Shown: in pieces, positions 858 through 15,359 of the stretch
Position numbering within the stretch: position 1 is the first letter of the stretch
Layout of the letters: each line of letters begins with the position of its first letter
From: Gammaproteobacteria bacterium
GTDB taxonomy: Bacteria > Pseudomonadota > Gammaproteobacteria > QNFN01
DNA: 37,259 nucleotides
Assembly (NCBI GenBank): GCA_033722135.1
Contig: JAWVZO010000003.1
Location: 1 to 37,259, forward strand
Direction: 5' to 3'
The notes under the pieces: model-generated
What the model was told of the DNA's origin: nothing
The model's input: only the letters and a program-made list of their open reading frames with translations
Database searches by the model: none
Translations under genes and position numbers: made by a program

Positions 858-996
858 CGGCGATCCCTTGGTGTCACAACGACGCATGGGGTCTCTCCCT
901 CGCGGACACGCGATTCCCGACGGGTCGGCGCGCTGACTGGGCGGCGCGGTCCGTCGTCCTGGGCCCAATCTCTACAGCGTGCGGGAGGTCATCGCA

Positions 997-1012
997 TCCC
1001 CCGGATGGGGGA
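997..1012. promoter_or_regulatory. Palindrome TCCCCC-GGAT-GGGGGA, candidate operator of the adjacent LuxR-type regulator
   Basis: Perfect 6-bp inverted repeat with 4-nt spacer in the divergent intergenic region. Confidence 0.35.
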
Positions 1013-1164
1013 GGGCCGTCGTCACCCGCTTGTGCCGTCCTGCTTTGCATAATCGGCATTCCGAAAAGATAATCCGTGTCGATCATGTGGTTACGGTCCC
1101 GATGTGCATCCGCCCTTCCGAGGGGCCGTCCATCGCGCCCATGCACGACCTGCGGAGCGAATCG

Positions 1165-2346
1165 ATGCAGTCCACCTCGCACCTGCTGGAACTGGTCGGT
1201 GAGCTCTACGACACCGCGACGGACATCGACGGCTGGCCGAGGTTCCTCGAGCGACTGACCCGGTTCTTCGCCGCCGACGGCGCGCAGTTCCGGCACACGG
1301 ATGTCGCCGAAGACTGCTACACGGTCACCTTCACCCACGGTTTCGACTCCTCGCGCGGGCTGAGCCTCGAGGAGGCCAACGCACGTTACGAACCGTTGAC
1401 CCTCGAAGACCCGCGAACCCTCGCCGGGATGCGTTACCCGGGCAAGCCGATCTCCTGCCGGTTGCACGTCGGGGAGGCGGCGCTACACGCCACCGAGGTG
1501 TACCGGCGCGTGCTGAAACCGATCGGTGCCGAGTATTCGATGGCCGTCTGGCTGCCGGACGAGGAGGCACGAACCTTCACCGCGGTGGGGCTTTGGCGTG
1601 GTCCCGAGTCGAGTCTCTTCACGCAGGAGGAGGCCGACCTTTTCGGACAGATCGTGCCGCACATGAACAAGGCGTTGAAGATTTACAAGCGGCTCACCGA
1701 ATCCGACCTCACGGCCCGGGTCAGCGAGTCGCTGCTCGACGATATCGGCCTGGGCATTCTGCTGGTCGACGCGTCGTTGCGGGTCCGCCTCGCGAACCGG
1801 AGCGCACGGGAACTCGCCGCGCGGCAGGAGGGATTCGCTCTCCTCAGTGATCGCCTCGTGCCGTCGACCGTCGAGGACAGTCGCGTGCTCAGGTCGGCCG
1901 TCCAGCGGCTCCTGGATGACGCCTCGTCGGAGCATGCCTCCCCGGGCGAGGCGCTGTCGCTTCGGCGTCCCTCGGGTGCCGCGCCGCTCTACGTGACCGT
2001 CAGCCGGCTCGACAACGGGCCGGCGAAAGAATCCGTACCGTCCCGGCAGGAGTCCCTGGCGGTGCTGTTCGTCGCCGACCCGGAGCGCTCGCTGGAGTGC
2101 CCGGCGGAGGTCCTGCAGCGGCTGTTCGGCCTGACTCCCAGGGAAGCCGAACTGCTCGGCCTGCTGGTCGGGGGCGAGCCCTTAAGGCAAGTGTCAGGCC
2201 AGCTCGGTATCGGCCTGGAGACGGCCCGTAGCCACCTCAAGAGCGTATTCATGAAAACCGGGACCCAGCGGCAGGGGGACCTGATCCGACTGGTCATGTC
2301 CACGCCAGCGTGGCTGCGGGCGCGTGAGGAAGCGCGCGAGGTGTGA
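1165..2346 (+). CDS. LuxR-family HTH transcriptional regulator with N-terminal sensor and PAS-like domain
   Basis: C-terminal 'FGLTPREAELLGLLVGG...VSGQLGIGLETARSHLKSVFMKTGTQRQGDL' LuxR HTH; 'GILLVDASLRVRLANRSA' PAS-like segment; GGAG RBS before ATG 1165. Confidence 0.85.
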   Translation: MQSTSHLLELVGELYDTATDIDGWPRFLERLTRFFAADGAQFRHTDVAEDCYTVTFTHGFDSSRGLSLEEANARYEPLTLEDPRTLAGMRYPGKPISCRLHVGEAALHATEVYRRVLKPIGAEYSMAVWLPDEEARTFTAVGLWRGPESSLFTQEEADLFGQIVPHMNKALKIYKRLTESDLTARVSESLLDDIGLGILLVDASLRVRLANRSARELAARQEGFALLSDRLVPSTVEDSRVLRSAVQRLLDDASSEHASPGEALSLRRPSGAAPLYVTVSRLDNGPAKESVPSRQESLAVLFVADPERSLECPAEVLQRLFGLTPREAELLGLLVGGEPLRQVSGQLGIGLETARSHLKSVFMKTGTQRQGDLIRLVMSTPAWLRAREEAREV

Positions 2347-2393: not shown

Positions 2394-3293
2394 TCAGGCG
2401 GGCGTAACGTAGTGGTCGACCAGCAGTAGCGCGAAGAGCAGCCCGATGTAGAGGATCGAGTAGGAGAAGACGCGCAGGGCCTGGCGGTCGTCGTCGGTCC
2501 GGTAGAGGCGCCAGGCCTGCAGCACGAAGATCGCGCCGAGCACGACCGCGCCCGCGAGGTAGAGCCCGCCGCTCATGCCAGCGCCGAACGGGAACAGCGA
2601 CACGGCGAGCAGCATCACCGCGTAGAGCAGCACCTGCAGCTTGGTGAACGCGACGCCGTGGGTGACCGGCAGCATCGGGATCCCGGCGCGCCGGTAATCC
2701 TCGCGGCGATGGATCGCCAGCGGCCAGAAGTGGGGCGGCGTCCAGGTGAAGACGATCAGGAACAGCAGCACCGCGTGGAGGTGGACCTCGCCGGTCATCG
2801 CCGCCCAGCCGAGCACCGGCGGCATGGCGCCGGCGGCACCGCCCCAGACGATGTTCTGCGGCGTGCTGCGTTTGAGCAGCACGGTGTAGACCACGCCGTA
2901 GCCGATCAGCGAGGCGAAGCTGAGAATCGCCGTGAGCGGGTTGACCAGGGTCGCCAGCAGGATCACCGAGAAGAAGCCGAGGCCGATCGCGAGCGCCAGC
3001 GCGTGGCTCGCCGGTACGCTGCCGGTCGGCAGCGGGCGGCGCCGGGTGCGCTGCATGTGCCCATCGCTCTCGCGCTCGATCAGGTGGTTGAGCGCGGCAC
3101 CGCTGGCCGCGGCGGCCGCGATGCCCAGGGTGCCGAAGAGCAGGGGCGCCCAAGGTGCGGGGCCCTCGACCGCCAGCAGCATGCCCACGATCGCGGTGAA
3201 GACGATCATCAGCACCACCTTCGGCTTGGTCAGCTCGAGGTAGCAAGCGAGCGTCGGTCGGGCGGCGGCGGAAAGGGTCTCGGTCCGGTACAT
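2394..3293 (-). CDS. ctaB: Protoheme IX farnesyltransferase (heme O synthase)
   Basis: 'YLELTKPKVV', 'N..IERESDGHMQRTRRRPLPTG', 'WTPPHFWPLA', 'EDYRRAGIPMLPV' motifs of CtaB/CyoE. Confidence 0.95.
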   Translation of the reverse strand: MYRTETLSAAARPTLACYLELTKPKVVLMIVFTAIVGMLLAVEGPAPWAPLLFGTLGIAAAAASGAALNHLIERESDGHMQRTRRRPLPTGSVPASHALALAIGLGFFSVILLATLVNPLTAILSFASLIGYGVVYTVLLKRSTPQNIVWGGAAGAMPPVLGWAAMTGEVHLHAVLLFLIVFTWTPPHFWPLAIHRREDYRRAGIPMLPVTHGVAFTKLQVLLYAVMLLAVSLFPFGAGMSGGLYLAGAVVLGAIFVLQAWRLYRTDDDRQALRVFSYSILYIGLLFALLLVDHYVTPA

Positions 3294-3300
3294 CGTTCAC

Positions 3301-3894
3301 TCACCAGCTGCGCGACAGGCGCAGCAGCCGTTTCAGATCCTTGAGGACGTCGCCCGGCGCGATCTCGGAGACATCGTAACGCAGCACGAGATCGCCTCGC
3401 GGGTCGCCCAGCAGCAACGTCGGCGACCCGCGGGCGATCCTGGCCAGCACAGGGCTGGCCAGGGCCAAGCGGAGATCGGGGGAGTCCTCGAGCAGGCGCT
3501 CCCGGACCGCCGCCGCGGGCGGGACCTCGAAGGCGACGATCCGCGTGACCCGCTGCATGTCCATGCCCGCCGCGCGGCGCGCCTGGCGCAGCGTGACGTG
3601 GCGGCTCCGGCACGCCTCGGCGCACGGTCCCGGCTCTACGGCGAGCAGGAGCCAGTCGTTCGGGTCCGGCGTGACGGCGAACGGACGGCCGTCGAGATCG
3701 CGGAGCGCCAGCGCGCCGAACGGCACCGGCGGCTCGAGCAGCGTGCCGCGGGCGCCCGGATCGGGAAGCCACTGCGGGTTCAGGTAGAGGAGCCACGCGC
3801 CGACGAACGGGAACGCGGCGATCGCCGCGAGGAGCAGCAGCACCCGCCGGTTGTGGCGGCGCCGCGCCTCGAGCGGCTGCGCGGCGGCGTTCAT
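3301..3894 (-). CDS. Cox-cluster membrane-anchored protein (thioredoxin/SCO-like fold)
   Basis: N-terminal TM helix, 'GTLLEPPVP', CxxxC 'CAEAC', 'DPRGDLVLRY...KDLKRLLRLS'; ATGA overlap with surf1; usual position downstream of surf1. Confidence 0.75.
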   Translation of the reverse strand: MNAAAQPLEARRRHNRRVLLLLAAIAAFPFVGAWLLYLNPQWLPDPGARGTLLEPPVPFGALALRDLDGRPFAVTPDPNDWLLLAVEPGPCAEACRSRHVTLRQARRAAGMDMQRVTRIVAFEVPPAAAVRERLLEDSPDLRLALASPVLARIARGSPTLLLGDPRGDLVLRYDVSEIAPGDVLKDLKRLLRLSRSW

Positions 3895-4613
3895 GCCGGG
3901 GCGCCCGTCCGGCGTCCGAACGCATGGCGCACCCAGAGCACCAGCGCGATTGCGGCGAAGGCGAACCACTGCACCGCGTAGCCGACGTGCAGGGACGGGG
4001 CCAGCCCGCCGGTCGGTCGGCGCCAGTCGCGGACGAAGCCGTGGGGCGCGTCGGGGTCGAGGAGCAGGGCCGCCGGGAGCGGGACCACCCCGGCCACGTC
4101 GGCGTAGGCGGCTGGGTCGAGGCGCGACCAGGGCGCCCGCCACGGCGCCTCGGCCGGGGCAGCCGGGCCGAGCTCGAGCGCGGGTGGCTGGGGATGCACC
4201 AGGCGGCCGGTGAGGACGACGCCGCCGTCGGGGGGCGGCGTTGCGCGGCCCGCGTCGGCTACCCACCCCCGGTTGACGAGCAGCTCGGCGCCGCCGTCCA
4301 GGCGCAGCGGAGTGATCACGTGGACGCCGCGTCGGCCGGCGTGGAGGCGGTCGCCGACCACGAACTGGTGCGCGGCGACGAACTCGCCGCGGGCCTCGAC
4401 CCGGGCGAACTCCAGCGCCTCCCAGTCCGGGCGCGCGGGCAGCGGCGTGGCCACGGGGGCATCCCAGCGCGCGTCGAGCCGGGCGCGCAGGACCCGCTTG
4501 GTCTCGGCGCGGTCGAGCTGCCAGAGGCCGAGCGAGCAGAACAGCGGCACGGCGATCAGCATGGCGAGCGTCGGGACCGGTCCCGGGCGGAAGGTGAGTT
4601 GTCCAAGGCGCAT
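3891..4613 (-). CDS. surf1: SURF1-family cytochrome oxidase biogenesis protein
   Basis: 'LGLWQLDRAETK', 'VITPLRL', 'LLVNRGWV', 'H.GYAVQWFAFA'. Confidence 0.92.
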   Translation of the reverse strand: MRLGQLTFRPGPVPTLAMLIAVPLFCSLGLWQLDRAETKRVLRARLDARWDAPVATPLPARPDWEALEFARVEARGEFVAAHQFVVGDRLHAGRRGVHVITPLRLDGGAELLVNRGWVADAGRATPPPDGGVVLTGRLVHPQPPALELGPAAPAEAPWRAPWSRLDPAAYADVAGVVPLPAALLLDPDAPHGFVRDWRRPTGGLAPSLHVGYAVQWFAFAAIALVLWVRHAFGRRTGAPA

Positions 4614-4726
4614 CGCACTGCTATACCTTTGCCATTACGCAAAGAGGTGTCGGGTCCGCGGACGCGCGGACGATCGATCCGGCGGCGGGCCTCGAGGCGG
4701 CGCCCCGCAGGCACCCGGAGGTTTCC

Positions 4727-4942
4727 ATGGACATGATCATCAAGGTCCCGATGTTCATCCTGTTGGGGCTGATCATCTTCTCTCTCGGCCAGGCGATGTT
4801 CTTCCTGGGGCGTGACGACGGCGAGACCGACCGCACGCGGATGGTCCGCGCGCTCACGGTCCGCATCACCCTCTCGCTGATCCTGTTCGGGCTGCTGATG
4901 GTGGGCTACTACTTCGGGATGGTCGAGCCGCACGCCAGGTAG
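4727..4942 (+). CDS. Twin-transmembrane-helix small protein (DUF2909-like)
   Basis: 'IIFSLGQAMFFL...RMVRALTVRITLSLILF...G...PH'; GGAGG RBS; typical antisense position between coxC and surf1. Confidence 0.85.
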   Translation: MDMIIKVPMFILLGLIIFSLGQAMFFLGRDDGETDRTRMVRALTVRITLSLILFGLLMVGYYFGMVEPHAR

Positions 4943-4966
4943 CGGCGGCGGACGGGACTGGCCGCG

Positions 4967-5842
4967 TCAGAGCCAGTAGACGAAGACGAACAGGCCGAGC
5001 CAGACCACGTCGACGAAGTGCCAGTACCAGGCCACCGCCTCGAAGGCGAAGTGGTTGTGCGGCGAGAAGTGGCCCTTCCTCGCGCGAACGAGGATCGCCA
5101 TCAGCATGATCGCGCCGATGGTCACGTGCATGCCGTGGAAGCCGGTCAGGATGTAGAAGGTCGATCCGTAGACCCCCGAGGCGAGGGTCAGGTTGAGGTC
5201 CACGTAGGCGTGCCGGTACTCGTAGGCCTGGAAGCCGACGAACAGCACGCCGAGTGCGATGGTCGCGACCAGACCGCGGATCAGGGTCTTCTGGTCGTTG
5301 AGCTTCAGCCCCCAGTGGGCCCAGGTGATCGTCGCGCCGCTGGTCAGCAGGATCAGGGTGTTGAGCGCCGGGATGCCCCAGGCACCCATCACGGTGTACT
5401 CGCCGCCCAGCGCGCCGGGACCGGCGGTCGGCCAGTCGGCCGCGAACTGGCTGTAGAGGATCTCCGAACTGCCCAGGTACCCGGCACCGCCGAGCCACGG
5501 CACCGCGATGTTGCGGATGTAGTACAGCGCGCCGAAGAAGCTGGCGAAGAAGAACACCTCCGAGGCGATGAACCAGTACATCCCCTGGCGGAACGAGCGG
5601 TCGACCTGGTGGTTGTAGGCGCCCGAGAGGTTCTCCGTGACCACGTCCCGGAACCAGCCGTAGAAGACGTAGCCGATCAGCAGCGCTCCGAGGCCGACGA
5701 CGATTCCGCCAATGGCGACGTCGTTGATCATCAGCGTCGCGCCGAACAGCAGTGCGAACACCGCGAACATCGAGATGAACGGCCACGGGCTCGGTTCCGG
5801 GACGAAGTAGTGGCTACCCGGCGTGTCGCTTGGCTGGCTCAT
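4967..5842 (-). CDS. coxC: Cytochrome c oxidase subunit III
   Basis: 'PSPWP', 'WFIASEVFFF', 'NTLILLTSG', 'TGFHGMHV', 'WYWHFVDVVW'. Confidence 0.96.
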   Translation of the reverse strand: MSQPSDTPGSHYFVPEPSPWPFISMFAVFALLFGATLMINDVAIGGIVVGLGALLIGYVFYGWFRDVVTENLSGAYNHQVDRSFRQGMYWFIASEVFFFASFFGALYYIRNIAVPWLGGAGYLGSSEILYSQFAADWPTAGPGALGGEYTVMGAWGIPALNTLILLTSGATITWAHWGLKLNDQKTLIRGLVATIALGVLFVGFQAYEYRHAYVDLNLTLASGVYGSTFYILTGFHGMHVTIGAIMLMAILVRARKGHFSPHNHFAFEAVAWYWHFVDVVWLGLFVFVYWL

Positions 5843-6461
5843 GGGCGGTCTCGTGGGCCTGGTCTTGGGTGTGATCGTGACCGTCGTCGTGGGCGTGCGG
5901 GCGCGCCACGGCGTCGGGGTCGGTGTTCATGAACGTGTAGGAGACGGTCAGGTGGTTGAACTCGCGGGGCAGGTCGGGCAGCACCGCGAAACGCAGCGGC
6001 ATCTCGACCTCGGCGCCGGCCTCGAGCGTCTGCTCCTGGAAACAGAAGCACTCCACCTTGTCGACATAGGGCGTCGCCTGCCAGGGCGTGACGTTGACCA
6101 CGGCGCGCCCGGTGATCGTCCGCGCCGCGTTGTTGCGTGCGGTGTAGCTCGCCGTGTGCAGGCGACCGGTCTCGATCTCCATCTTGCGCGTGACCGGGGC
6201 GAAGTCCCACGGCAGGTCGGCGTGGACGTTGGCGTCGAAGCGCACCGTCACCGGCCGCGCCACCGGCTCCGCGGCGGGCGGGCCGGGCGTGACGATCTCG
6301 ACAGCGCGCTGGCGTGGTGCGTCGGCGACCTGGATGCCGAGCGCCGCGCAGATCTGGCCGTAGAACGGCGCGAGCCCGAAGCCGAGGCCGAACATGGCCA
6401 GCGCGATGCCGCCGATCCACAGGGCGGTCCTGCCGTGGTTCCGGTGCGCCGTGCCCGTCAT
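5814..6461 (-). CDS. ctaG: Cytochrome c oxidase assembly protein CtaG/Cox11 (CuB insertion), His-rich C-tail
   Basis: N-terminal TM helix followed by Cys, 'VRFDANV...LPWDFAP', 'KVECFCFQEQTL', 'TVSYTF'. Confidence 0.92.
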   Translation of the reverse strand: MTGTAHRNHGRTALWIGGIALAMFGLGFGLAPFYGQICAALGIQVADAPRQRAVEIVTPGPPAAEPVARPVTVRFDANVHADLPWDFAPVTRKMEIETGRLHTASYTARNNAARTITGRAVVNVTPWQATPYVDKVECFCFQEQTLEAGAEVEMPLRFAVLPDLPREFNHLTVSYTFMNTDPDAVARPHAHDDGHDHTQDQAHETAHEPAKRHAG

Positions 6462-6604
6462 CGCGCGGCGTTGAGCGCCGTCTGGATCAGGTTCTTCCAG
6501 AACGGCACCGAGGAGAAGAACACGACGATCGCGAACGCGCCGAGGAGCAGCGCGGTGCGGCGGTTCCTGCGCCGGGTGGCGTCGTCTACCGGGGGCGTGG
6601 CCAT
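6458..6604 (-). CDS. Small single-TM protein between coxA and ctaG (48 aa; possible GTG start 6613)
   Basis: MATPPVDDATRRRNRRTALLLGAFAIVVFFSSVPFWKNLIQTALNAAR; stop overlaps ctaG ATG (ATGA); GTG 6613 overlaps the coxA stop. Confidence 0.7.
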   Translation of the reverse strand: MATPPVDDATRRRNRRTALLLGAFAIVVFFSSVPFWKNLIQTALNAAR

Positions 6605-6609
6605 CGCGT

Positions 6610-8202
6610 TCACTTGACGCGCGGGGCCGTTTCCCAGGAGTGGAACGGCGGCGGCGACGGCAGCTCCCACTCGAGTCCGGTCGCGCCCTCCCACGCCTTG
6701 TTGTCGGCCTTCTTGCCGCCGCGGATGCACTTGATGACGATGTACAGGAACAGCAGGTGGCTGAGGCCGTAGATCAGGCCGGCGACGCTCGAGATGAAGT
6801 TGAACTCGGCGAAGATCACGTTGTAGTCGATGATCCGCCGCGGCATCCCGGCCAGTCCCAGGAAGTGCTGGACGAAGAAGGTCAGGTTGAAGCTGATCAT
6901 GTTGACCCAGAAGAAGATCTTGGCCAGCCGCTCGTCGTACATGTGGCCGGTCCACTTCGGCAGCCAGTAGAAGACCGCCGCGAACAGCCCGTAGATCGCG
7001 CCCGGGATCAGCACGTAGTGGAAGTGGGCGACGACGAACATCGAGTCGTGGTACTGGATGTCGGCCGGGATGACCGCGAGCATCACCCCGGTCAGGCCAC
7101 CGAAGCTGAACAGCAGCACCATCGCCGTGGCGAAAAGCATCGGCGTCTCGAAGGTCATCGCGCCGCGCCACATGGTGGCGATGAAGTTGAACAGGATCAG
7201 GCCGACCGGGATCGAGATCAGGATCGTGCCGATCATGAAGTAGTTCACCGCCGCGAACGACATACCGATGGTGTACTGGTGGTGGGCCCAGACCACCATG
7301 CCGAGGGTCGCTATGACCAGCATCGCACCGACCGTCGAGTGGTAGCCGAACAGCGGCTTGCGCGAGAAGGCCGGGATCACCTGGGCCAGCGCGCCGATCG
7401 CCGGCAGGATCAGGATGTAGACCTCGGGGTGACCGAAGAACCAGAACAGGTGCTGGAACAGCACCGGGTCGCCGCCGCCGGCGGCGTTGAAGAAGCTGGT
7501 GCCGAAGTGGCGGTCGAAGAGCAGCATGGTGACTCCGCCGGCGATGATCGGCACCACCAGGATCAGCAGGAACGCGGTGACGAACCAGGCCCAGCAGAAG
7601 ACCGGCATCTTGAACAGGGTCATGCCGGGGGCGCGCATGTTGAGGATCGTGACGATGATGTTGATCGAGGCCAGCACCGAGGAGATGCCGAGCAGGTGGA
7701 TGGCGAAGATCAGGAAGTCCATCGACATGCCGACCTGCACCGAAAGCGGCGGATAGAGCGTCCAGCCGGTGTTGATCTGGGTGCCGCCGCCGGGGAAGAA
7801 CGGCACGATGAACGACAGGATCAGCATCATCGCCGCGGCCGGGAGGATCCAGAAGCTCAGGTTGTTGAGCCGTGGCAGGGCCATGTCGGGCGCGCCGATC
7901 ATCAGCGGGATCATCCAGTTGGCGATACCCGCGCCGGCCGGCATCACCGCGCCGAAGATCATGATCAGCGCGTGGTTGGTCAGGATGTTGTTGTAGAGAT
8001 CCGGGTCGAGGAACTGCAGGCCGGGGAACAGCAGCTCGGCGCGGATCGCCATGGCGGAAAGGCCGCCGAGGAAGAACATGGTCAGCGCGAACAGCAGGTA
8101 GAGCGTGCCGATGTCCTTGTGGTTGGTGCTGTACAGCCAGCGCCGCCAGCCGTACGGATGATGTTCGTGTTCGCTGTGCAGTGTGTCTGCGGTCGTACTC
8201 AT
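6610..8202 (-). CDS. coxA: Cytochrome c oxidase subunit I, A1 type (K-channel residues substituted)
   Basis: 'TNHKDIG', 'PDMALPRLNN', 'GWTLYPPL', 'FGHPEVY', 'WAHH', 'AHFHYV', 'GMPRR'. Confidence 0.98.
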   Translation of the reverse strand: MSTTADTLHSEHEHHPYGWRRWLYSTNHKDIGTLYLLFALTMFFLGGLSAMAIRAELLFPGLQFLDPDLYNNILTNHALIMIFGAVMPAGAGIANWMIPLMIGAPDMALPRLNNLSFWILPAAAMMLILSFIVPFFPGGGTQINTGWTLYPPLSVQVGMSMDFLIFAIHLLGISSVLASINIIVTILNMRAPGMTLFKMPVFCWAWFVTAFLLILVVPIIAGGVTMLLFDRHFGTSFFNAAGGGDPVLFQHLFWFFGHPEVYILILPAIGALAQVIPAFSRKPLFGYHSTVGAMLVIATLGMVVWAHHQYTIGMSFAAVNYFMIGTILISIPVGLILFNFIATMWRGAMTFETPMLFATAMVLLFSFGGLTGVMLAVIPADIQYHDSMFVVAHFHYVLIPGAIYGLFAAVFYWLPKWTGHMYDERLAKIFFWVNMISFNLTFFVQHFLGLAGMPRRIIDYNVIFAEFNFISSVAGLIYGLSHLLFLYIVIKCIRGGKKADNKAWEGATGLEWELPSPPPFHSWETAPRVK

Positions 8203-8257
8203 GGGTCCGTATCCTTGCCGTGTCCGGCCCCGCGGGCCGTAACGGTCACTTCGCGCT

Positions 8258-9376
8258 TCAGCGCGCTGCCTTGACGTCGCGTGGTTGCACGAGGTCGCCG
8301 GTGTCGTTGCCCCAGGCGTTGCGCTCGTAGGTGACGATCGCCGCGATCTCTAGGTCGTTGAGCTGCCCTTTCCAGGGCGGCATCGCGGAGCCCGGCTTGC
8401 CGTGCAGCACGATGTCGATGTGCGGGCCGGTCGGGCCGGTGGCGATCGCGCTGCCCTTGAGCGGCGGGAAGGCGGGCTGCAGCCCCTCGCCGTTGATCTG
8501 GTGGCAGCTGGCGCACTTGGTGTTATAGAGGCCCTTGCCCTTCTCCATCAGGTCGGGCATGGACCACTCGATGTCGGCCGCCGCCTCGGCCTCGGCAGCC
8601 ACCTCGGCGGCCTTCGCCTCGGCGAGCCAGGTCTCGAACTCGGACTCGCTGACCGCCTCGACGACGATCGGCATCTTGGCGTGCCAGGTGCCGCAGAGCT
8701 CGGCGCACTGGCCGCGGTAGACGCCCTCGGTGTCGATCGTCGCCCAGGTCTCGGTGATGTAGCCGGGAATCGCGTCCTTCTTGAAGCCGAGCGCCGGGAC
8801 CCACATGGCGTGGTTGACGTCGGCGGAGGTGTGCAGGAAGCGCACCGGCCGATGGGTCGGCAGCACCAGACGGTTGTCGACGTCGCGCAGGTAGAGCCCG
8901 TCGTCGGCCTGGTCCTCCGGTAGCGCGCGGCTCTCGATGCGGATGCCGGAGTCCATGTACTCGTATTCCCAGTACCACTGGTGACCGGTCACCTTGACGT
9001 CGAGCATGCCCTCCTGCTTCGGCACGATCCACATCTCCTGGAGCACCTTCTGCGCCGAGCCGGCGATGGTCAGGTCGACGCCGAGCACCATCGCCGGGAC
9101 GATGATCCACGACCAGGTGCCGAACCAGGTCTTGTGAAAGTTCTGGTCGGGCTGGTAGCCGCGGCTCTTGCGGAACTTCCAGATCGCGAAGAAGACCACC
9201 CCGAACACGCCGATCAGCAGGATCGTCGAGATGCCCATGGTCAGCATGTGGAGGTCGTAGATGTCACGCGCGATCGGGGTCGCCGGCGGCGGGAAGTTCA
9301 GGCCGTACTCGGCCCGCGCGGGGGCGGCCGAAACCAGCAGGAGAGGCAAAAACCACAACGATCGGATTGTTTTCAT
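8258..9376 (-). CDS. coxB: Cytochrome c oxidase subunit II with C-terminal cytochrome c (caa3-like); alternative start 9388
   Basis: Signal peptide, two TM helices, 'GHQWYWEY', CuA 'DVNH...CAELCGTWHAKM', C-terminal 'CASCH...M' heme c domain. Confidence 0.96.
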   Translation of the reverse strand: MKTIRSLWFLPLLLVSAAPARAEYGLNFPPPATPIARDIYDLHMLTMGISTILLIGVFGVVFFAIWKFRKSRGYQPDQNFHKTWFGTWSWIIVPAMVLGVDLTIAGSAQKVLQEMWIVPKQEGMLDVKVTGHQWYWEYEYMDSGIRIESRALPEDQADDGLYLRDVDNRLVLPTHRPVRFLHTSADVNHAMWVPALGFKKDAIPGYITETWATIDTEGVYRGQCAELCGTWHAKMPIVVEAVSESEFETWLAEAKAAEVAAEAEAAADIEWSMPDLMEKGKGLYNTKCASCHQINGEGLQPAFPPLKGSAIATGPTGPHIDIVLHGKPGSAMPPWKGQLNDLEIAAIVTYERNAWGNDTGDLVQPRDVKAAR

Positions 9377-9410
9377 GCGCGCAAGCATAGCAGGCTCGGA
9401 GCCGTGGAAA

Positions 9411-9953
9411 TCAGGTGATCGCGGAGCGGGTCCGCACGGGCACGACGGGCAGCGGATCGGCCTCGGCGAGGCGCGGTTTCGGCGCGGCGAGCGAGGCGAG
9501 TGCCTCGGCCAGTTCCTGCCGCTCCTCCTCGACCAGCCGGGCACCGACCTCCAGGCTGCGCCCGTGGGATCGGAGCAGCAGCCGGCTCGGGTACCAGCCC
9601 GTCGGGTCGCGGGCCAGGATCACGCGCACCCAGGCTCGCTGGAAGCGGTGTTCCTCCTCGGGCCGCGAACGGCCACGTTGCACGACCAGGCTGTCCGGTC
9701 CGACGCGGATCACCTCGACCTGGCGGCTCCAGCGGCAGGCGAGGTAGAGCGCGGCGCCGAGCAGCAGCATCTCGGCGCCGGCGAATGGCAGCACCAGCCA
9801 GGCGCCGCGCAGCGCGAACCACCCGGCGATCGCCGAAGTGAGCAGCAGCATCGCCGCGCAGCACCACTTGGCCGCGCGCCACGGCAGCGAGCCGTTCGGG
9901 CGGAGTGTCAGGACGAGGCCGTCGCCGTCGTCGTGGGCGGTGCGGATGATCAT
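9411..9953 (-). CDS. DUF2244-family membrane protein
   Basis: 'LRPNGSL', 'GAWLVLPFAGAE', 'G..VEVG..L.EEER..LA..L'; usual position upstream of coxB. Start 9953 preferred over 10013 because of the promoter geometry. Confidence 0.85.
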   Translation of the reverse strand: MIIRTAHDDGDGLVLTLRPNGSLPWRAAKWCCAAMLLLTSAIAGWFALRGAWLVLPFAGAEMLLLGAALYLACRWSRQVEVIRVGPDSLVVQRGRSRPEEEHRFQRAWVRVILARDPTGWYPSRLLLRSHGRSLEVGARLVEEERQELAEALASLAAPKPRLAEADPLPVVPVRTRSAIT

Positions 9954-9985
9954 GATGGACCGGTCCGGCGGACTGTATTGGCCCG

Positions 9986-10027
9986 ATTGTCCCGCATGAG
10001 GCGCGACGGCCATTTGACTTACCGCAA
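9986..10027 (-). promoter_or_regulatory. Candidate class II FNR/ANR-dependent promoter of the cox operon
   Basis: TTGAC-ttac-CGCAA at 10014-10027 (7/10 to TTGAT-N4-ATCAA). With -10 GACAAT (minus strand, 9991-9986) the box is centred at -41.5. Confidence 0.45.
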
Positions 10028-10044: not shown

Positions 10045-10734
10045 TCAGGTCGGGCGCACCTCCGGCGGCGGTCGCAGGGCCTCCGCGCTCTCTTCCGGCG
10101 TCGCCGACGGCAGGTGGGGCAGGATGCCGAGGCACGGTGCGTGGAGCCGTCCGCGGAGCGTATCGATCTGCGCGTCGAGGCGCTCCGTGCCGGGCTCGAT
10201 GCAGTTCGCCACCCAGCCGGCGAGGCGCAGGCCGCGCGCGGCGATGCTCTCCGCCGTGAGCAGCGCGTGGTTCAGGCAGCCGAGGCGCATCCCGACCACC
10301 AGCACCGCGTCGAGGTCGAGCACGCCGGCCAGGTCGGCGAGCGTGTGCCGGTCGTCGAGCGGGACCAGCCAACCGCCCGCCCCCTCGACCACGACCACGT
10401 CGGCCCCCTCGGCCAGCACGCGGTAGGCCGCGGCCAGCCGGGCGAGGTCCAGCGCGACCCCGGCCTCGGCGGCGGCGATGTGCGGCGCGATCGGCGGGGC
10501 GAGCGCGTAGGGGTTGATCTCTTCATAGGGCCGCTCCCGGGACGCGCAGGCCATCAGCCGCAGCGCGTCGTCGTTGCGCAGGCCGTGCCCGAGGTCCTCG
10601 CAACCGGCCGCGACCGGCTTCATACCGGCCACCTCCAGGCCCGCCGCGCGCAACCGCAGCATCAGCGCGGCGGCGACGCGCGTCTTGCCGACCCCGGTGT
10701 CGGTGCCGGTGACGAACAGGCCTCGCGCGGTCAC
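10045..10734 (-). CDS. bioD: Dethiobiotin synthase
   Basis: 'FVTGTDTGVGKT', 'MKPVAAG', 'VVEGAGGW', 'LGCLNHALLT'. Confidence 0.96.
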   Translation of the reverse strand: MTARGLFVTGTDTGVGKTRVAAALMLRLRAAGLEVAGMKPVAAGCEDLGHGLRNDDALRLMACASRERPYEEINPYALAPPIAPHIAAAEAGVALDLARLAAAYRVLAEGADVVVVEGAGGWLVPLDDRHTLADLAGVLDLDAVLVVGMRLGCLNHALLTAESIAARGLRLAGWVANCIEPGTERLDAQIDTLRGRLHAPCLGILPHLPSATPEESAEALRPPPEVRPT

Positions 10735-11588
10735 GGCGCGCGGCGCAGGGCGCCCACCGGCACGGCACGTTCGCCGGTGTCGGCGGGGGCCCGCCAGGCG
10801 TGGCCGTAGACCACCTCGTAGGTGGCCGGGAGGGTGCCGTCTTCGCGCCGGAAGGTAGCGTAGGCGTCGGCCAGTGTGGCCAGCGCGCGCCGCCCGGTAA
10901 GCCCGCGCGGACGGCCGGCGGTGACGTTGTGGGCACCGATCGCCTTCAGGTCGCGCATCAGCCCGAGGACGTCCGGGTAGGTGAGCGTGATGTGCTCGCA
11001 GTCCATGACCGGGTCGGCGAAGCGCGCGCCGAGCAGGGCGTCTCCGAGGTCGTGCAGGTCGAAGAAGGCGTTGACGTGGTTGCGGTCGTCGACCTCGGCC
11101 CAGCTAGCACGCAGCTCTCCGAGGGTGTCGGGCCCGAAGGTCGTGAACAGCAGCAGGCCGCCCGGGCGCAGCACCCGGTGCAGCTCCGCGAAGACCGCGG
11201 CGGGGTCGAGACACCACTGCAGCGCGAGGTTGGAGAACAGCAGGTCGACGCTGCGTTCGGCCAGCGGCAGCGTGCCGAGGTCGCCGCAGATCCAATGGGG
11301 TCCGGGCCCGACCCGGCGCCGGGCCTCGGCGAGCATGGCCGGCGCCAGGTCGAGCCCGACCAGCCGTGTTTCGGGGAACCGCTCCGACAGGCCCGCGCTC
11401 TGACGGCCGGTGCCGCAGCCCAGGTCGACCGCCACCCGCGGTTCGAGGCGCATCCACTCCAGCCGCTCGAGCAGCCGCCGGCCGACCTCGTGCTGCAGCA
11501 CGGCCGCGGCGTCGTAGCTCGACGCCGCGCGGTCGAACGAGTCGCGCACGTCGCGGCGGTCGTGGCTCCAGGGTTGCGGTTCAGGCAT
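10731..11588 (-). CDS. bioC: Malonyl-ACP O-methyltransferase
   Basis: 'FDRAASSYDAAAVLQHEV', SAM motif 'VDLGCGTG', 'SNLALQW', 'TFGPDTLGELR'; ATG 11588 overlaps the bioH 3' end. Confidence 0.93.
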   Translation of the reverse strand: MPEPQPWSHDRRDVRDSFDRAASSYDAAAVLQHEVGRRLLERLEWMRLEPRVAVDLGCGTGRQSAGLSERFPETRLVGLDLAPAMLAEARRRVGPGPHWICGDLGTLPLAERSVDLLFSNLALQWCLDPAAVFAELHRVLRPGGLLLFTTFGPDTLGELRASWAEVDDRNHVNAFFDLHDLGDALLGARFADPVMDCEHITLTYPDVLGLMRDLKAIGAHNVTAGRPRGLTGRRALATLADAYATFRREDGTLPATYEVVYGHAWRAPADTGERAVPVGALRRAP

Positions 11589-12348
11589 CGAGAAACGCCT
11601 CGACGGCCTTGGTGCAAGGGGCCAGCGCGGACAGGAACGGCGCGTGGCAGGCGCCGTCGAGCACCTCGACCCGCGCCTGCGGCCACGAGGCGAGCCGCCC
11701 GGCGACACCCGCGGGGACGAGCGTGTCCCGCGCGCCGAGGAGCCACAGGGACGGCACCCGCAGGGCCGCCGAGACGGAGGTGAGATCGCTCCGCGCCAGG
11801 AGTTCGAGCCCGGTCGCCAGGGCGTCGGGATCGGGCTGACCCCCGGCGGCGAGGACGGTGCGCAGCACACGCCGCACCGAGCGCTCGGCGTCGTCGCCGT
11901 GGGCCACCAGCCCGGCGAACCGGTTCAGCGTGGTCGCGACATCTCGCGCCAGGTCGTGCCTGAAGGCGTCGAGCGTGTCGGGCGGCAGGGCGTCGGGCCA
12001 CGCTTCGGTCGCGGTGAAGCGCGGCGTCGTCGCCAGCAGCACGAGACGCCCGAAGCGCTCCGGCCTGGCCAGCGCGAGCTGCAGGCAGGCGAGGCCGCCG
12101 AGCGACCAGCCGAGCCAGTCGCGCGTGTCGGGCAGCGTCGCGTCGAGCTGGGCGGCGAGGCCCTGCAGGTGGTCGGGCATCGGCAGGCCGCGGCTGCCGC
12201 CGTGGCCCGGGAGCTCGACCAGCTCCACCGTGCGCCGGCGGGCCAGCGACTCGGCCAGCGAGCGCAGCGTCGCGGCGCCGAAGCCCCAGCCGTGGACGAT
12301 GGCCAGCGGCGGCCCCTCGCCGAAGCGGATCACCTGCAGCGGGGTCAC
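11581..12348 (-). CDS. bioH: Pimeloyl-ACP methyl ester carboxylesterase
   Basis: GTG start overlapping the bioF stop; 'VHGWG', 'ELPGHG', nucleophile 'GWSLGG', 'D.LVP', 'HAPFLS'. Confidence 0.92.
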   Translation of the reverse strand: MTPLQVIRFGEGPPLAIVHGWGFGAATLRSLAESLARRRTVELVELPGHGGSRGLPMPDHLQGLAAQLDATLPDTRDWLGWSLGGLACLQLALARPERFGRLVLLATTPRFTATEAWPDALPPDTLDAFRHDLARDVATTLNRFAGLVAHGDDAERSVRRVLRTVLAAGGQPDPDALATGLELLARSDLTSVSAALRVPSLWLLGARDTLVPAGVAGRLASWPQARVEVLDGACHAPFLSALAPCTKAVEAFLDA

Positions 12349-13493
12349 GCGGGCAGTTCCGCGAGGCCGTCGAGCAGGCGGTCGACCTGCGCCTCGTCGT
12401 GGGCGGCGGAGAAGGTGATGCGCAGCCGGGCGGTGCCGTCGGGAACGGTCGGGGGTCGGATCGCGGTGACCAGCAACCCCCGGGCCTCGAGCGCGCGGCT
12501 GGCGTCCAGGGCGCGTGCCGCGTCGCCGAGCACCAGGGCCTGGATCGGAGACTGCGACGGCAGCAGCTCGAGGCCGAGTGCCCCGGCGCCGGCCCGGAAA
12601 CGGGCGACCAGCTCGGCGAGCCGATCGCGACGCCACTCTTCGTCGATCGCCAGGCGCAGGCTGGCGCGGGTCGCTGCGGCGACCGCCGGCGGCAACGCGG
12701 TGGTGTAGATGTACGGCCGGGCGTGCTGGATCAGCGTCTCGATCATGGGCTCGTCCCCGGCCACGAAGGCTCCGAAGGTGCCGAACGCCTTGCCCAGCGT
12801 GCCGACCAGCAGCGGCACCTGCCCGGCGTCGAGCCCGGCCAGCGCGAGGCTGCCGCGTCCGCCGGGACCGGTGGCGCCGAGGCCGTGGGCATCGTCGACC
12901 AGCAGCCGGGCATCGTGTTCGCGACAGGTCGCGGCGAGTTCGGCGAGCGGCGCGACGTCGCCGTCCATGCTGAACACTCCGTCGGTCGCGACCAGCGCCC
13001 GGCCCGGCGCGCGTTTCAGCTGCTCGGCGAGCGAATCGGGGTCGGCGTGGCGATAGCGCAGCCGCCGCGCGCCGCTGAGGCGCGCGCCGTCGATCAGCGA
13101 GGCGTGGTTGAGGCGGTCCCCGATCACGCTGTCGCCGCGCCCGGCCAGCGCGGCGATGGTGCCGAGATTGGCCATGTAGCCGGTCGAGAAGAGCAGCGCA
13201 CGCGCGCGCCCGGTGAACGCGGCGAGCTCCTCCTCGAGGGCATGGTGCTCGGCGTGGTGGCCGTTGACCAGGTGGGCCGCGCCGCTGCCGCTGCCGAAAC
13301 GGCGTGCCGCGCTCGCGAACGCCTCGGCGACCCGCGGGTCGCCGGCGAGGCCGAGGTAATCGTTGCTGCAGAAGGCGAGCAGACGACGCCCGTCGACCAC
13401 CGCCTCCGGCCCGACCGGGCCGGAAACGACGCGTCGCTCGCGGTAGAGCCCCTCGGACCGCCTGCGATCGAGCGCCGCGGCCAGCGCCCTCAT
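12345..13493 (-). CDS. bioF: 8-amino-7-oxononanoate synthase
   Basis: '[10 protein letters not shown]', 'NHASLIDG', 'DGVFSMDGD', 'DDAHG', PLP lysine 'GTLGKAFG', 'IRPPTVP'; ATGA overlap with bioB. Confidence 0.96.
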
Positions 13494-14527
13494 ACCGTGC
13501 CAGGCGCGGCGCGTCCGCTGGCGCAGGCGTTGCCGTAGAGCAGAGGGCCCCGGTCGGTGCCGCCGCTGTGCGCATGCTCGTGCTCGGCCTGCGCGTGCAG
13601 GTCGAGACGGGCGAACAGCGCCGCGTCGCGGTCGGGCGAGGCGTTGGGCGTGGTCAACAGCCGCTCGCCGTGGAACACCGAGTTGGCACCGGCGAGGAAG
13701 CAGAGCGCCTGCAGCTCGTCGCTCATCTGCTCGCGTCCGGCCGAGAGGCGGACCACCGAGTCCGGCATCAGGATGCGGGCGACGGCGACGGTGCGCACGA
13801 GCTCGAAGGGGTCGAGATCCGGGGCGTCGGCCAGCGGCGTGCCGGGCACCTTGACCAGGTGGTTGATCGGCACGCTCTCGGGGTGGCTCGGCAGGTTGGC
13901 GAGCTGCTGGAGCAGGCCGGCCCGGTCGGCGCGCGACTCGCCCATGCCGACGATGCCGCCGCAGCAGACGGCGAGGCCGGCCTCGCGCACCGCCGTGAGG
14001 GTCTGCAGGCGGTCGTCGTAGCCGCGCGTGGTGATCACCTCCGGGTAGTACTCCGGCGAGGTGTCGAGGTTGTGGTTGTAGTAGTCGAGGCCCGCGTCGC
14101 GCAGCGCGCGCGCCTGGGCGTCGCTGAGCATGCCGAGGGTCAGGCAGGTCTCGAGGCCCAGCTCCTTGACCTCGCGCACCATGTCGGCGACCAGCGCGAT
14201 GTCGCCGTCGCGCGGGCTGCGCCAGGCGGCCCCCATGCAGAAACGCGTCGCCCCCGCGTCCCGCGCCTTGCGCGCGGCGGCGAGCACCTCGTCGACCGCC
14301 AGCAGCCGCTCGCGCTCGAGTTCGGTGTCGTGGTGTGCGCTCTGCGGGCAATAGCCGCAGTCCTCGGGGCAGGCGCCGGTCTTGATGCTGAGCAGCGCGC
14401 TGACCTGGATCGCGCCGGACTCGTGGTGGGCGCGGTGCGTCTGCTGGGCGGCGAAGAGCAGGTCGTGGAACGGCTGCTCGAAGAGGGCGAGGACCTCGTC
14501 GCGGGTCCAGTCGTGGCGCTTGGTCAT
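13490..14527 (-). CDS. bioB: Biotin synthase
   Basis: Radical SAM '[11 protein letters not shown]', 'YNHNLDTS', 'ESVPIN', 'RLSAGR'. Confidence 0.98.
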
Positions 14528-14578
14528 GGTCGTTCTGCCTGCTATGTTGGCCGGGCCCGGGACGGCGACGGGCGCCTC

Positions 14579-14606
14579 ATGGTAGGCGGCAGGAGGCCGC
14601 TGTCAA
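14579..14606 (-). promoter_or_regulatory. Sigma70 promoter of bioBFHCD (-35 TTGACA, 16 nt, -10 TACCAT)
   Basis: Minus strand: TTGACA 14606-14601, TACCAT 14584-14579, about 50 nt upstream of the bioB ATG. Confidence 0.7.
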
Positions 14607-14631
14607 CCGCGAAGGAACGCTATGGTTGACC
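14601..14631. promoter_or_regulatory. BirA biotin operator
   Basis: TGTCAACC-N15-GGTTGAC, matching the gammaproteobacterial BirA box TGTaAACC-N14..16-GGTTtACA and overlapping the bioB -35. Confidence 0.8.
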
Positions 14632-15329
14632 GATGGTTAAATAATATACAATTTGCCCTCTTTCCCCCGCACTGCCTGCTTTGCGGGGGACCCGGCGACG
14701 CCCCGCGCGACCTCTGCCGCCACTGCCACGACGCCCTGCCGCGCCTGACGGCCTGCTGCCCGGTCTGCGCCCTGCCGCTGGCGGAGGAGGCCGCGGGCCG
14801 CCCGTGCGGGCGCTGCCGGCGTCCGCCGCCCTTCGCCGCGACGCGCGCCGCCTTCCGCTACGCTCCACCGCTCGACCGCCTGGTGCTGGACATGAAATTC
14901 GCCGGTCGGCTGGCGCCGGCACGCCTGCTCGGTGGTCTGCTGGCCGAACACCTGGCGCGCGGCTCGGGACCGGGGCCCGAGATGCTGCTGCCGGTCCCGC
15001 TGCACCCGCGACGCCTGCGCGCGCGCGGCTTCAACCAGGCCGTGGAGCTGGCCCGGCCGGTCGCCGCGCGGCTGGGCCTCCCGCTCCACACCCGTGGTTG
15101 CCGCCGCGTGCGCGACACCCCCGCACAGAGCGGGCTCGGGGCCGGCGCCCGGCGGCGCAACGTCCGCGGCGCGTTCGCGGTCGACGCGCCGGTCGCTGGC
15201 CGCCGCGTGGCGCTGCTCGACGACGTGGTCACGACCGGCCACACCGTGACCGAACTGGCCCGTGCACTGGTCGCCGCGGGTGCCGAGCGGGTCGAGGTGT
15301 GGTGCCTGGCGCGTGCGCCGCGACCCTGA
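14622..15329 (+). CDS. comF: ComF/GntX-family protein (zinc ribbon + PRTase-like domain)
   Basis: Four CxxC pairs, 'PVPLHPRRLRARGFNQA', 'LLDDVVTTGHT'; divergent from bioB as is common in Gammaproteobacteria. Confidence 0.92.
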   Translation: MVDRWLNNIQFALFPPHCLLCGGPGDAPRDLCRHCHDALPRLTACCPVCALPLAEEAAGRPCGRCRRPPPFAATRAAFRYAPPLDRLVLDMKFAGRLAPARLLGGLLAEHLARGSGPGPEMLLPVPLHPRRLRARGFNQAVELARPVAARLGLPLHTRGCRRVRDTPAQSGLGAGARRRNVRGAFAVDAPVAGRRVALLDDVVTTGHTVTELARALVAAGAERVEVWCLARAPRP

Positions 15330-15330
15330 T

Positions 15331-15353
15331 CGGCTGCCGCCACGCGGCATCCG
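15331..15353. terminator. GC hairpin between convergent comF and the 669-aa gene
   Basis: CGGcTGCCGC-cac-GCGGCAtCCG (9 of 10 bp paired); no clear U-tract. Confidence 0.3.
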
Positions 15354-15359
15354 GCCGGT

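Follow-up and report, generated by a model that had tools for sequence, protein, structure and literature searches.

Oxidases of the A family of heme-copper oxidases (HCOs) have two proton channels, K and D, and the reason they need both is still debated. Engineered K362M enzymes (R. sphaeroides numbering) have lost almost all turnover and keep their peroxidase activity. Reported here is a cytochrome c oxidase (cox) operon of type A1 whose subunits I and II are without K-channel residues that the canonical enzymes carry. The operon is found at positions 2394–10013, minus strand, of a 37,259 nucleotide (nt) stretch of DNA from a bacterium of the Gammaproteobacteria (assembly GCA_033722135.1, contig JAWVZO010000003.1, positions 1–37,259). 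This whole stretch is termed the window. The oxidase belongs to a clade, termed clade X, in which the replaced residues are the conserved state.

According to PMC7196763, uptake of substrate protons through the K channel is believed to be confined to the two reductive steps that precede O2 binding, unless the channel acts as a dielectric well instead; pumping and all other steps are assigned to the D channel. K-less oxidases of the A family are already in print. Degli Esposti et al. (bioRxiv 10.1101/2020.03.01.968255; PMC8239418) describe them, in the text available, in Acidithiobacillus, Acidiferrobacter, and Thioclava. The enzyme of the acidophilic iron oxidisers, compared here by its published description, resembles that of the window in that K354 (P. 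denitrificans numbering) is hydrophobic, E78 of subunit II is non-conservatively replaced, and the D channel is kept. However, it is described as A2-type by the HCO classifier and as the deepest-branching group of the A family, whereas the window enzyme displays HPEVY (A1) and nests with Pseudomonas-type enzymes (support 99) in trees built without acidophile sequences. The oxidase of Ferrigenium straubiae, coxBA11C, is remarked to lack the K channel in the available text of bioRxiv 10.64898/2026.01.22.701106, whose authors call its function unclear; by that description it has the same operon type as the window, with K residues missing in subunits I and II. Seven losses have been inferred in print for archaeal A-family oxidases. 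In HCOs of the B and C families one proton input channel is apparently enough for O2 reduction (PMC11214002, available text), as is proposed below for clade X, but these families keep a K-type channel and have no D channel.

The canonical A1 aa3/caa3 oxidases (Pseudomonas coxBA-ctaG-coIII; the P. denitrificans and R. sphaeroides references) share with the window the operon order, the redox ligands, the cross-link Tyr, a D channel with Glu286, the Mg site, PRR, CuA, and a cytochrome c on subunit II. Subunit I of the window is 61–66% identical to the canonical group and about 50% identical to a Paracoccus-like representative. It is unlike these enzymes in that T359, K362, and E101 of subunit II are replaced, S299 has become variable, and Ser356 and Gln335 are fixed. 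Further differences are W366 to F/Y, F387I, H456F, and a score just under the NCBIfam equivalog cut-off.

No mention of clade X, or of its taxa as K-less, was found in a literature search that left most subscription journals and the supplementary trees of Degli Esposti et al. outside its reach. The papers found on K-less A-family enzymes do not name the taxa of clade X. The phenomenon is partly anticipated in print. A preliminary description of this DNA had cautioned that K-deficient A-family enzymes occur in other lineages and that novelty must be checked, and the acidophile, archaeal, and Ferrigenium enzymes bear this out.

Results

Replacement of K-channel residues

The register of subunit I (CoxA) comes from a phmmer search against all Protein Data Bank (PDB) chains, in which helices VI–VIII align without gaps to P. 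denitrificans 1ar1_A. In helix VIII the window sequence tilisipvglilfnf is paired with tmtiavptgikvfsw, and in helix VI ilpaigalaqv is paired with ilpgfgiishv. By this alignment V333 (7204–7206, minus strand, as are all codons given here) is in place of the K-channel Thr (P. denitrificans T351, R. sphaeroides T359), I336 (7195–7197) in place of the Lys (K354, K362), and A273 (7384–7386) in place of the Ser (S291, S299). The preliminary description had named these same replacements at these same positions, and the gap-free alignment shows them to be exact. Of the K-channel set listed in the available text of PMC3084760 (P. denitrificans Lys354, Thr351, Ser291, Tyr280), one residue of four is kept, the Tyr, and this holds across the clade.

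The pattern extends well beyond the window. Among the 120 best matches from 5.8 billion proteins (59–96% identical), 119 share the K-less pattern, the exception being P0118, a canonical sequence. It had been considered that the substitutions might be unique to this assembly, which these homologues show not to be so. Position 359 is V in 109, I in 10, and T in 1 of the 120. Position 362 is M in 95, I in 20, L in 3, V in 1, and K in 1, the sole K being that of P0118, so that a bulky hydrophobic residue is present in 119. Position 299 is variable in clade X (G 45, A 41, S 33, T 1 in the same set). N339, at the bottom of the old K path, is kept in 98. No Lys, Arg, Asp, Glu, or His has newly become conserved in helices VI–IX of clade X, and the compensating Lys or Glu that had been allowed for is therefore not among the conserved residues there.

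A helix VIII motif SIPVGLMKFNF is found in 12 of the 120 homologues. Its Lys was considered as a retained K362 and rejected; the alignment puts it at V363, one residue off. Lys at 363 marks a subclade of Piscirickettsiaceae metagenome-assembled genomes (MAGs) within clade X (L031, L033, L036, L037; P0058, P0069, P0070), and 3 of the 12 sequences also read WAHHMY again. This subclade may be a partial re-invention of the K channel.

A search of representatives of clusters at 50% identity was used solely for an outgroup and for family-wide conservation. At this threshold clade X is absorbed by a canonical cluster, which is why the best representative match is just 51% identical. Of the 150 representatives returned, 142 could be scored at the Lys column and just 106 of these carry Lys, so the earlier statement that this residue is near-invariant in the family is too strong.

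In subunit II (CoxB) the segment around the K-channel entry Glu (R. sphaeroides E101, P. denitrificans E78) reads FHKTWFGTWSWIIVP, with a one-residue insertion relative to P. denitrificans; the window sequence fhktwfgtwswiivp is paired with fthntpiev-iwtlvp. The counterpart of the Glu is T94 (9116–9118) in a MAFFT alignment anchored on W..VP, or G93 by HMMER, depending on where the gap is placed. Neither is acidic, and the loss of the Glu, first described with Thr at this codon, stands under either reading. Position 94 is E in 32 of 32 canonical rows of the locus alignment described below and Q in 5 of 5 rows of a second K-less group, clade Z. In clade X the four commonest residues are N (10), R (9), Q (7), and H (7), and the Thr of the window is rarer. 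The clade-X sequence reads FH..WFG.WSW, without Glu, in the 38–42 rows that cover each column.

Retained features

The D channel is intact. Sousa et al. (2011; PMC3084760, available text) list for P. denitrificans Asp124, Asn199, Asn113, Asn131, Tyr35, Ser134, Ser193, and Glu278, and all eight are present in the window as D106, N181, N95, N113, Y35, S116, S175, and E260. In R. sphaeroides numbering N121, D132, N139, S200, S201, N207, H284, E286, Y288, H333, and H334 are kept in 119–120 of the 120 homologues. The His ligands H77, H258, H307, H308, H393, and H395 pair with those of 1ar1_A and are invariant in a 36-row alignment. The cross-link Tyr is Y262 in HPEVY, and Tyr is found here in 119 of 120 homologues (the covalent link is predicted). 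CoxA also has HD at 385 (Mg site) and PRR at 454. CoxB carries the CuA motif C.E.CG..H..M and the heme c motif CASCH, the latter in a c-type domain fused at the C-terminus as in caa3-type enzymes (Pfam Cytochrome_CBB3 / Cytochrom_C, residues 284–357). All the catalytic and D-channel features that had been reported as retained are thus present.

Every sequence feature of the A1 type (Pereira/Sousa) is found except the K channel. Nitric oxide reductases (NORs), as described in the available text of PMC3084760, have no cross-link Tyr, display H-X-Arom-X-E and HH...E, and have lost the D channel. In the window the cross-link Tyr, the D channel, and HPEVY are all present, which sets it apart from the NOR part of the HCO superfamily. 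The pattern of the B family is not seen either, as the D channel is complete and position 359 is Val and 362 Ile/Met, not Ser/Thr.

Extent of clade X

The CoxA sequences of 80 named genome loci were aligned with that of the window. The 81 rows split cleanly into clade X (44), a canonical group (32), and clade Z (5). Clade X consists of the window and 43 of the 80 loci, at 71% identity or more; all display S-I-P-V-G-L-[MI] in helix VIII and all read WAHHQY. The 32 canonical rows (Pseudomonas, Marinobacter, Methylophilaceae, Methyloversatilis; 61–66% identity) all carry IAVPTGVKVFNW, WAHHMF, and the subunit II Glu. Clade X is monophyletic with an SH-aLRT support of 100 and a stem length of 0.26. 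The alignment and phylogeny called for in the preliminary description thus confirm the register and show the substitutions to be shared across one monophyletic clade.

By their record titles the carriers are mostly sulfur oxidisers of the Gammaproteobacteria. They include Candidatus Thiodiazotropha and other Sedimenticolaceae, Chromatiaceae, Candidatus Thiosymbion, Thiohalobacter, Thiothrix, and MAGs of Lysobacterales and Piscirickettsiaceae. The type is also found in the isolates Inmirania thermothiophila, Sedimenticola thiotaurini, and Thioalkalivibrio sulfidiphilus. From 400 genomes of the class, drawn evenly, 302 give an A-type match (four genomes flagged as unpublished are counted in the 302 alone). 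A full-length clade-X gene is found in 14 of the 400 at 70–88% identity, the next match being at 66%. In a fifteenth carrier, G027, the gene is split over two contig ends. The count of at least 15 of 400 is a floor, because it is taken among the best 150 matches.

In pairwise comparisons of the window with members of the clade, dN/dS is 0.09–0.22 for coxA and 0.13–0.44 for coxB. By these ratios clade X is under purifying selection. Together with fixation across the clade, intact genes, and conserved catalytic and D-channel residues, this upholds the earlier view of an evolved variant and not of decay. The four substitutions on which that view had been built are real; however, they are co-inherited through one or two events and therefore are not four independent lines of evidence.

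Other changes fixed in clade X

S330 (7213–7215; R. sphaeroides A356) brings in a hydroxyl group a turn above the Thr that was lost. Ser is found here in 44 of 44 clade-X rows and 119 of 120 homologues, and Ala in 31 of 32 canonical rows. Q309 (7276–7278; R. sphaeroides M335) adjoins two of the CuB His and is fixed as Gln (44 of 44) where the canonical rows have Met (32 of 32). It is the change of WAHHM to WAHHQ noticed earlier. Among 143 representatives position 335 is M in 129 and Q in 2, and both Q rows are without Lys.

A screen for positions that are at least 80% conserved in the 150 family representatives yet changed in clade X gave, besides the K-channel sites, M335Q (44 of 44), W366 to F/Y, F387I, and F135L. 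The last is common to clade X and its canonical sister group. Clade-specific polar gains are found in the periplasmic half near heme a (D68, N72, N76) or in loops. P341S, L346T/N, Y318G, and others differ from the sister group but were set aside as not special, P. denitrificans being already Ser or polar at some of them. F430 of CoxA (6913–6915) corresponds to R. sphaeroides H456; Phe is found in 44 of 44 clade-X rows and His in the canonical group and clade Z. H456 is described as a residue of the proposed H channel in the available text of PMC7196763.

Ser356 also goes with loss of the Lys in other lineages. Among the representatives Ser356 is present in 3 of 106 Lys-bearing rows. Position 362 is neither Lys nor Gln in 21 rows, of which 15 carry Ser and 3 carry Thr at 356. 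On a tree of 124 rows the Lys is gained or lost at least 10 times.

Related K-less clades

Clade Z, represented by five rows from Zoogloea and Dechloromonas, is a second K-less type. It carries ISLPLAVLFFCW, and Gln has replaced the Glu of subunit II. In its own homologue set 92 of 120 sequences are without Lys and 94 of 120 have Ser356. With clade X it shares Ser at 356, hydrophobic side chains in positions 359 and 362, a subunit II without the entry Glu, and a kept D channel. Unlike clade X it shows the motif IS[LV]P[LV]AVLFFCW, Ala in place of G360, and mostly a kept M335. Members (L073, L075, L078, L079, L081, P0430–P0549) come from Zoogloea, Dechloromonas, Sulfuricella, and Rhodocyclaceae (Betaproteobacteria).

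Clades X and Z join the canonical group in a single clade with a support of 99, the internal order of which is a trichotomy. After removal of the trait columns, the free tree joins clade X and the canonical group with a support of 12, and the AU test does not reject a tree in which X and Z are constrained to group together (p-AU 0.535). Clades X and Z therefore represent one loss of the K channel or two.

A third, distant K-less clade of subunit I, from Gemmatimonadota (P0187, P0311–P0429, P0268), reads ISVPIAE[LM]xF, with a Glu just ahead of the former Lys site. It displays WAHHQF in 120 of 120 sequences, Ser356, and an acidic residue in helix VI. A regular expression for the D-channel entry motif gave 0 matches in these 120 sequences. 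In the tree this clade is distant from clade X, so WAHHQ and S356 each have more than one origin.

Genome context and exchange of the operon

The oxidase of the window is the only A-type oxidase found in its genome, which also carries two very divergent HCOs and a cbb3 oxidase. A single match at E ≤ 1e-60 is seen in 12 of the 14 sampled genomes with clade X, and in three Thiodiazotropha genomes the clade-X enzyme is the only A-type. G027, of the window's genus, carries a clade-X enzyme that is 96–97% identical. In G387 of the same genus and G240 of the same family the enzyme is canonical, and both Thr and Lys are present, as is the Glu of subunit II.

The genes bioB, F, H, C, and D adjoin the cox cluster both in the window (10045–15400) and in G387 (L093:100–12800). 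The canonical cluster of G387 is inverted relative to that of the window, and ctaB lies on opposite sides of the module. Flanking proteins of the two genomes are 65–80% identical, but the cox, ctaG, and SURF1 proteins are merely 37–57% identical. Thus the whole module including the assembly factors has been exchanged at about the same locus. With a canonical operon beside the same bio genes in a species of the same genus, the operon behaves as an exchangeable cassette. In G053 (L091, contig C109) both a clade-X and a canonical operon are found, the canonical coxA being interrupted by one in-frame TGA.

One of the two divergent HCOs is a 499 amino acid (aa) subunit I on contig C60 (L003:1432–2931, minus strand) which reads AHNLME instead of GHPEVY and so has no cross-link Tyr. 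It adjoins a gene for a 184 aa weakly COX2-like protein and, from its sequence, looks like a member of one of the NOR-type HCO families. The other is a 465 aa subunit I on contig C78 (L085:78–1475, minus strand; COX1 53 bits), for which no PDB or NCBIfam match was found. It is divergent from an adjoining ctaA (L085:1054–2475, plus strand), which is the only ctaA match of the genome; the cox operon of the window has ctaB and no ctaA.

With respect to expression, Petersen et al. (2016; PMC6872982, available text) report for the lucinid symbiont Candidatus Thiodiazotropha endoloripes that the aa3 oxidase ranks among the 30 most abundant transcripts and is found in all six proteomes. Contigs from four RNA libraries of four studies cover most of coxA and coxB at 90–99% likeness, e.g. 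a 326 base contig spanning 7106–7431. The RNA runs behind them share at most 0.18 of words with the window. These contigs are a weak hint of expression of clade-X genes.

Genes of the operon

All genes of the operon are on the minus strand, in the order coxB-coxA-ctaG-coxC-SURF1-(PA0111-like)-ctaB, with a DUF2244 gene ahead of coxB. The reading frames of the cox genes in the window are open throughout and the assembly genes are intact. The DUF2244 membrane protein gene (9411–10013; Pfam PF10003, E = 3.6e-39) is directly upstream of coxB (8258–9397), whose product shows two transmembrane helices, a CuA domain, and a C-terminal c-type cytochrome (Pfam COX2, COX2_TM, Cytochrome_CBB3). The score of CoxB against NCBIfam TIGR02866 is 171.1, over the cut-off of 147.7, and an alternative start is possibly the ATG at 9376. 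CoxA (6610–8202, 530 aa, A1-type with HPEVY) matches Pfam COX1 at 483 bits, far above the cut-off, and PDB 1ar1_A with an E-value = 6.8e-159. Against the NCBIfam equivalog TIGR02891 it scores 660.7, just below the cut-off of 670.75. Its AlphaFold2 model has a predicted local distance difference test (pLDDT) score of 86.7 and a predicted template modelling (pTM) score of 0.89.

The copper chaperone gene ctaG/cox11 (5814–6461; Pfam PF04442, E = 2.9e-41) is followed by coxC for subunit III (4967–5842; Pfam COX3, E = 2.2e-60) and the SURF1 assembly factor gene (3891–4613; Pfam PF02104, E = 3.1e-40). A small gene was looked for in the 350 base gap between coxC and SURF1, and none was found. The gene at 3301–3894 encodes a CxxxC protein with a single transmembrane helix which is weakly PA0111-like (NF058629 at 56.3 bits against a cut-off of 230) and has no Pfam match. 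The last gene is ctaB/cyoE for heme O synthase (2394–3293; Pfam UbiA, E = 1.1e-71). Downstream of ctaB, on the opposite strand, is a gene for a LuxR-type regulator with a weak PAS match (979–2346, plus strand).

Discussion

Judged from its sequence, the product of the operon is very probably a functional A1-type cytochrome c oxidase whose subunit II carries a fused cytochrome c, a member of a conserved clade in which the lower K pathway is hydrophobic. The data point to a clade-X enzyme that is real, widespread, conserved, and physiologically used. Nothing that proton pumping requires is missing from it. Positions 333 and 336 are plugged by bulky hydrophobic residues and the former channel sites have drifted, and therefore the K path appears to have been abandoned and not rebuilt.

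The possibility that these findings reflect a pseudogene, a sequencing or binning artefact, or a register error that hides a Lys is negligible. The source assembly does consist of 301 contigs with 3.67% estimated contamination. However, the frames are open, helices VI–VIII align without gaps to solved structures, and the pattern is shared by 119 of 120 homologues of many different origins and, at 96–97% identity, by a genome of the same genus. The flanking bio genes are 66–80% identical to those of the sister species, as the right bin predicts.

The best explanation as a whole is a clade-X oxidase with D-only proton uptake, and this is modestly favoured. In such an enzyme the D channel and Glu286 would be the sole entry for both chemical and pumped protons; that every proton does enter in this way has a little less than an even chance. 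Ser356, Gln335, and internal water would let D-channel protons, or charge compensation, serve the steps from O to E to R. Residues 335 and 356 presumably are close to Tyr288 and CuB. A D-only oxidase would reverse the arrangement of the B and C families, in which the K-type channel alone is kept. The fuller proposal, that clade X runs at full physiological rates on D alone with Ser356 and Gln335 compensating and that K/D and D-only cassettes are swapped by habitat, is offered more tentatively.

Several points weigh against D-only uptake. The K362M enzyme is near-inactive, so a D-only route would need compensation; the Met at 362 of most clade-X homologues is the very residue of that classic knock-out. 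The proposed mechanism draws on sequence together with the presumed location of residues 335 and 356. A test of Ser/Thr at 356 against Lys by independent pairs gave five pairs, consistent in direction, with a median p of 0.125, which is not significant; the test of M335 against Lys gave the same number of pairs, the same consistency, and the same median p of 0.125. For Ser356 the lack of significance follows from there being only five independent pairs. Gln335 is not general to K-less enzymes, as clade Z keeps Met in 87 of 120 rows. The T. endoloripes expression data would be linked to clade X through the aa3 annotation, and the RNA contigs may include DNA carry-over and come from relatives that are 90–99% alike.

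Protons could instead enter by a replacement route from the cytoplasm, a water wire that passes the 333/336 plug through cavities which small clade-specific residues of helices VII and VIII (G292, G301, G325) would open, along with S330 and N339. Relative to the canonical sister group clade X does show Tyr changed to G292, Ser to G301, and Ala to G325, and polar residues stay at the top (S330) and the bottom (N339, 98 of 120) of the old path. The Gly changes, however, set clade X apart from the sister group only, P. denitrificans having Leu at G292 and Gly at G301. Residue 362 is bulky, and the variable entry site of CoxB suggests relaxed constraint, which makes such a wire unlikely. It is less likely still that the chemical protons of the reductive phase come from the periplasm, as in the cytochrome c-type NOR (cNOR), with O2 still reduced and less energy gained per electron. 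Clade-fixed polar gains at D68, N72, and N76 (by the heme a ligand H77), at S315, and at D108 and R171 of CoxB, all in the periplasmic half, could serve such uptake, but by alignment the polar gains are near heme a and not at the binuclear centre. A pump would be expected to keep its D channel and Glu286 fully conserved, as is seen here. Furthermore, the NORs that use periplasmic protons have lost the channels and the Tyr (PMC3084760, PMC11214002, available texts).

A changed role, in which the enzyme handles mainly H2O2, NO, or sulfide-inhibited conditions and not bulk O2 reduction, is likewise improbable. It would fit the peroxidase activity kept by K362M mutants, the mostly sulfide-exposed chemolithotrophic hosts (by locus titles), and the presence of a cbb3 oxidase in the genome of the window. 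Yet conservation extends to the cross-link Tyr, all three His of CuB, and the pump channel; the enzyme is the only A-type oxidase in most carrier genomes, and it occupies the spot of the canonical oxidase in a sister species. The genome also has separate NOR-like HCOs.

For annotation the finding means that ecological papers take clade-X genes for ordinary low-affinity aa3 oxidases. The yeast T316K mutant works at 15% of wild-type turnover (PMC7196763, available text). Clade X is a natural test of the need for the K channel, in that the blocked state is here the conserved wild type. As many carriers have this state, the need for the channel is directly testable, and several of the carriers are described species (Sedimenticola thiotaurini, Thioalkalivibrio sulfidiphilus, Inmirania thermothiophila). 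If D-only uptake with compensation by Ser356 and Gln335 is true, A-type catalysis would not depend mechanistically on the K pathway, and two second-site changes could suppress the phenotype of K362M. D-only and K-plus-D versions of the oxidase would then be interchangeable cassettes which chemolithotrophs swap by habitat.

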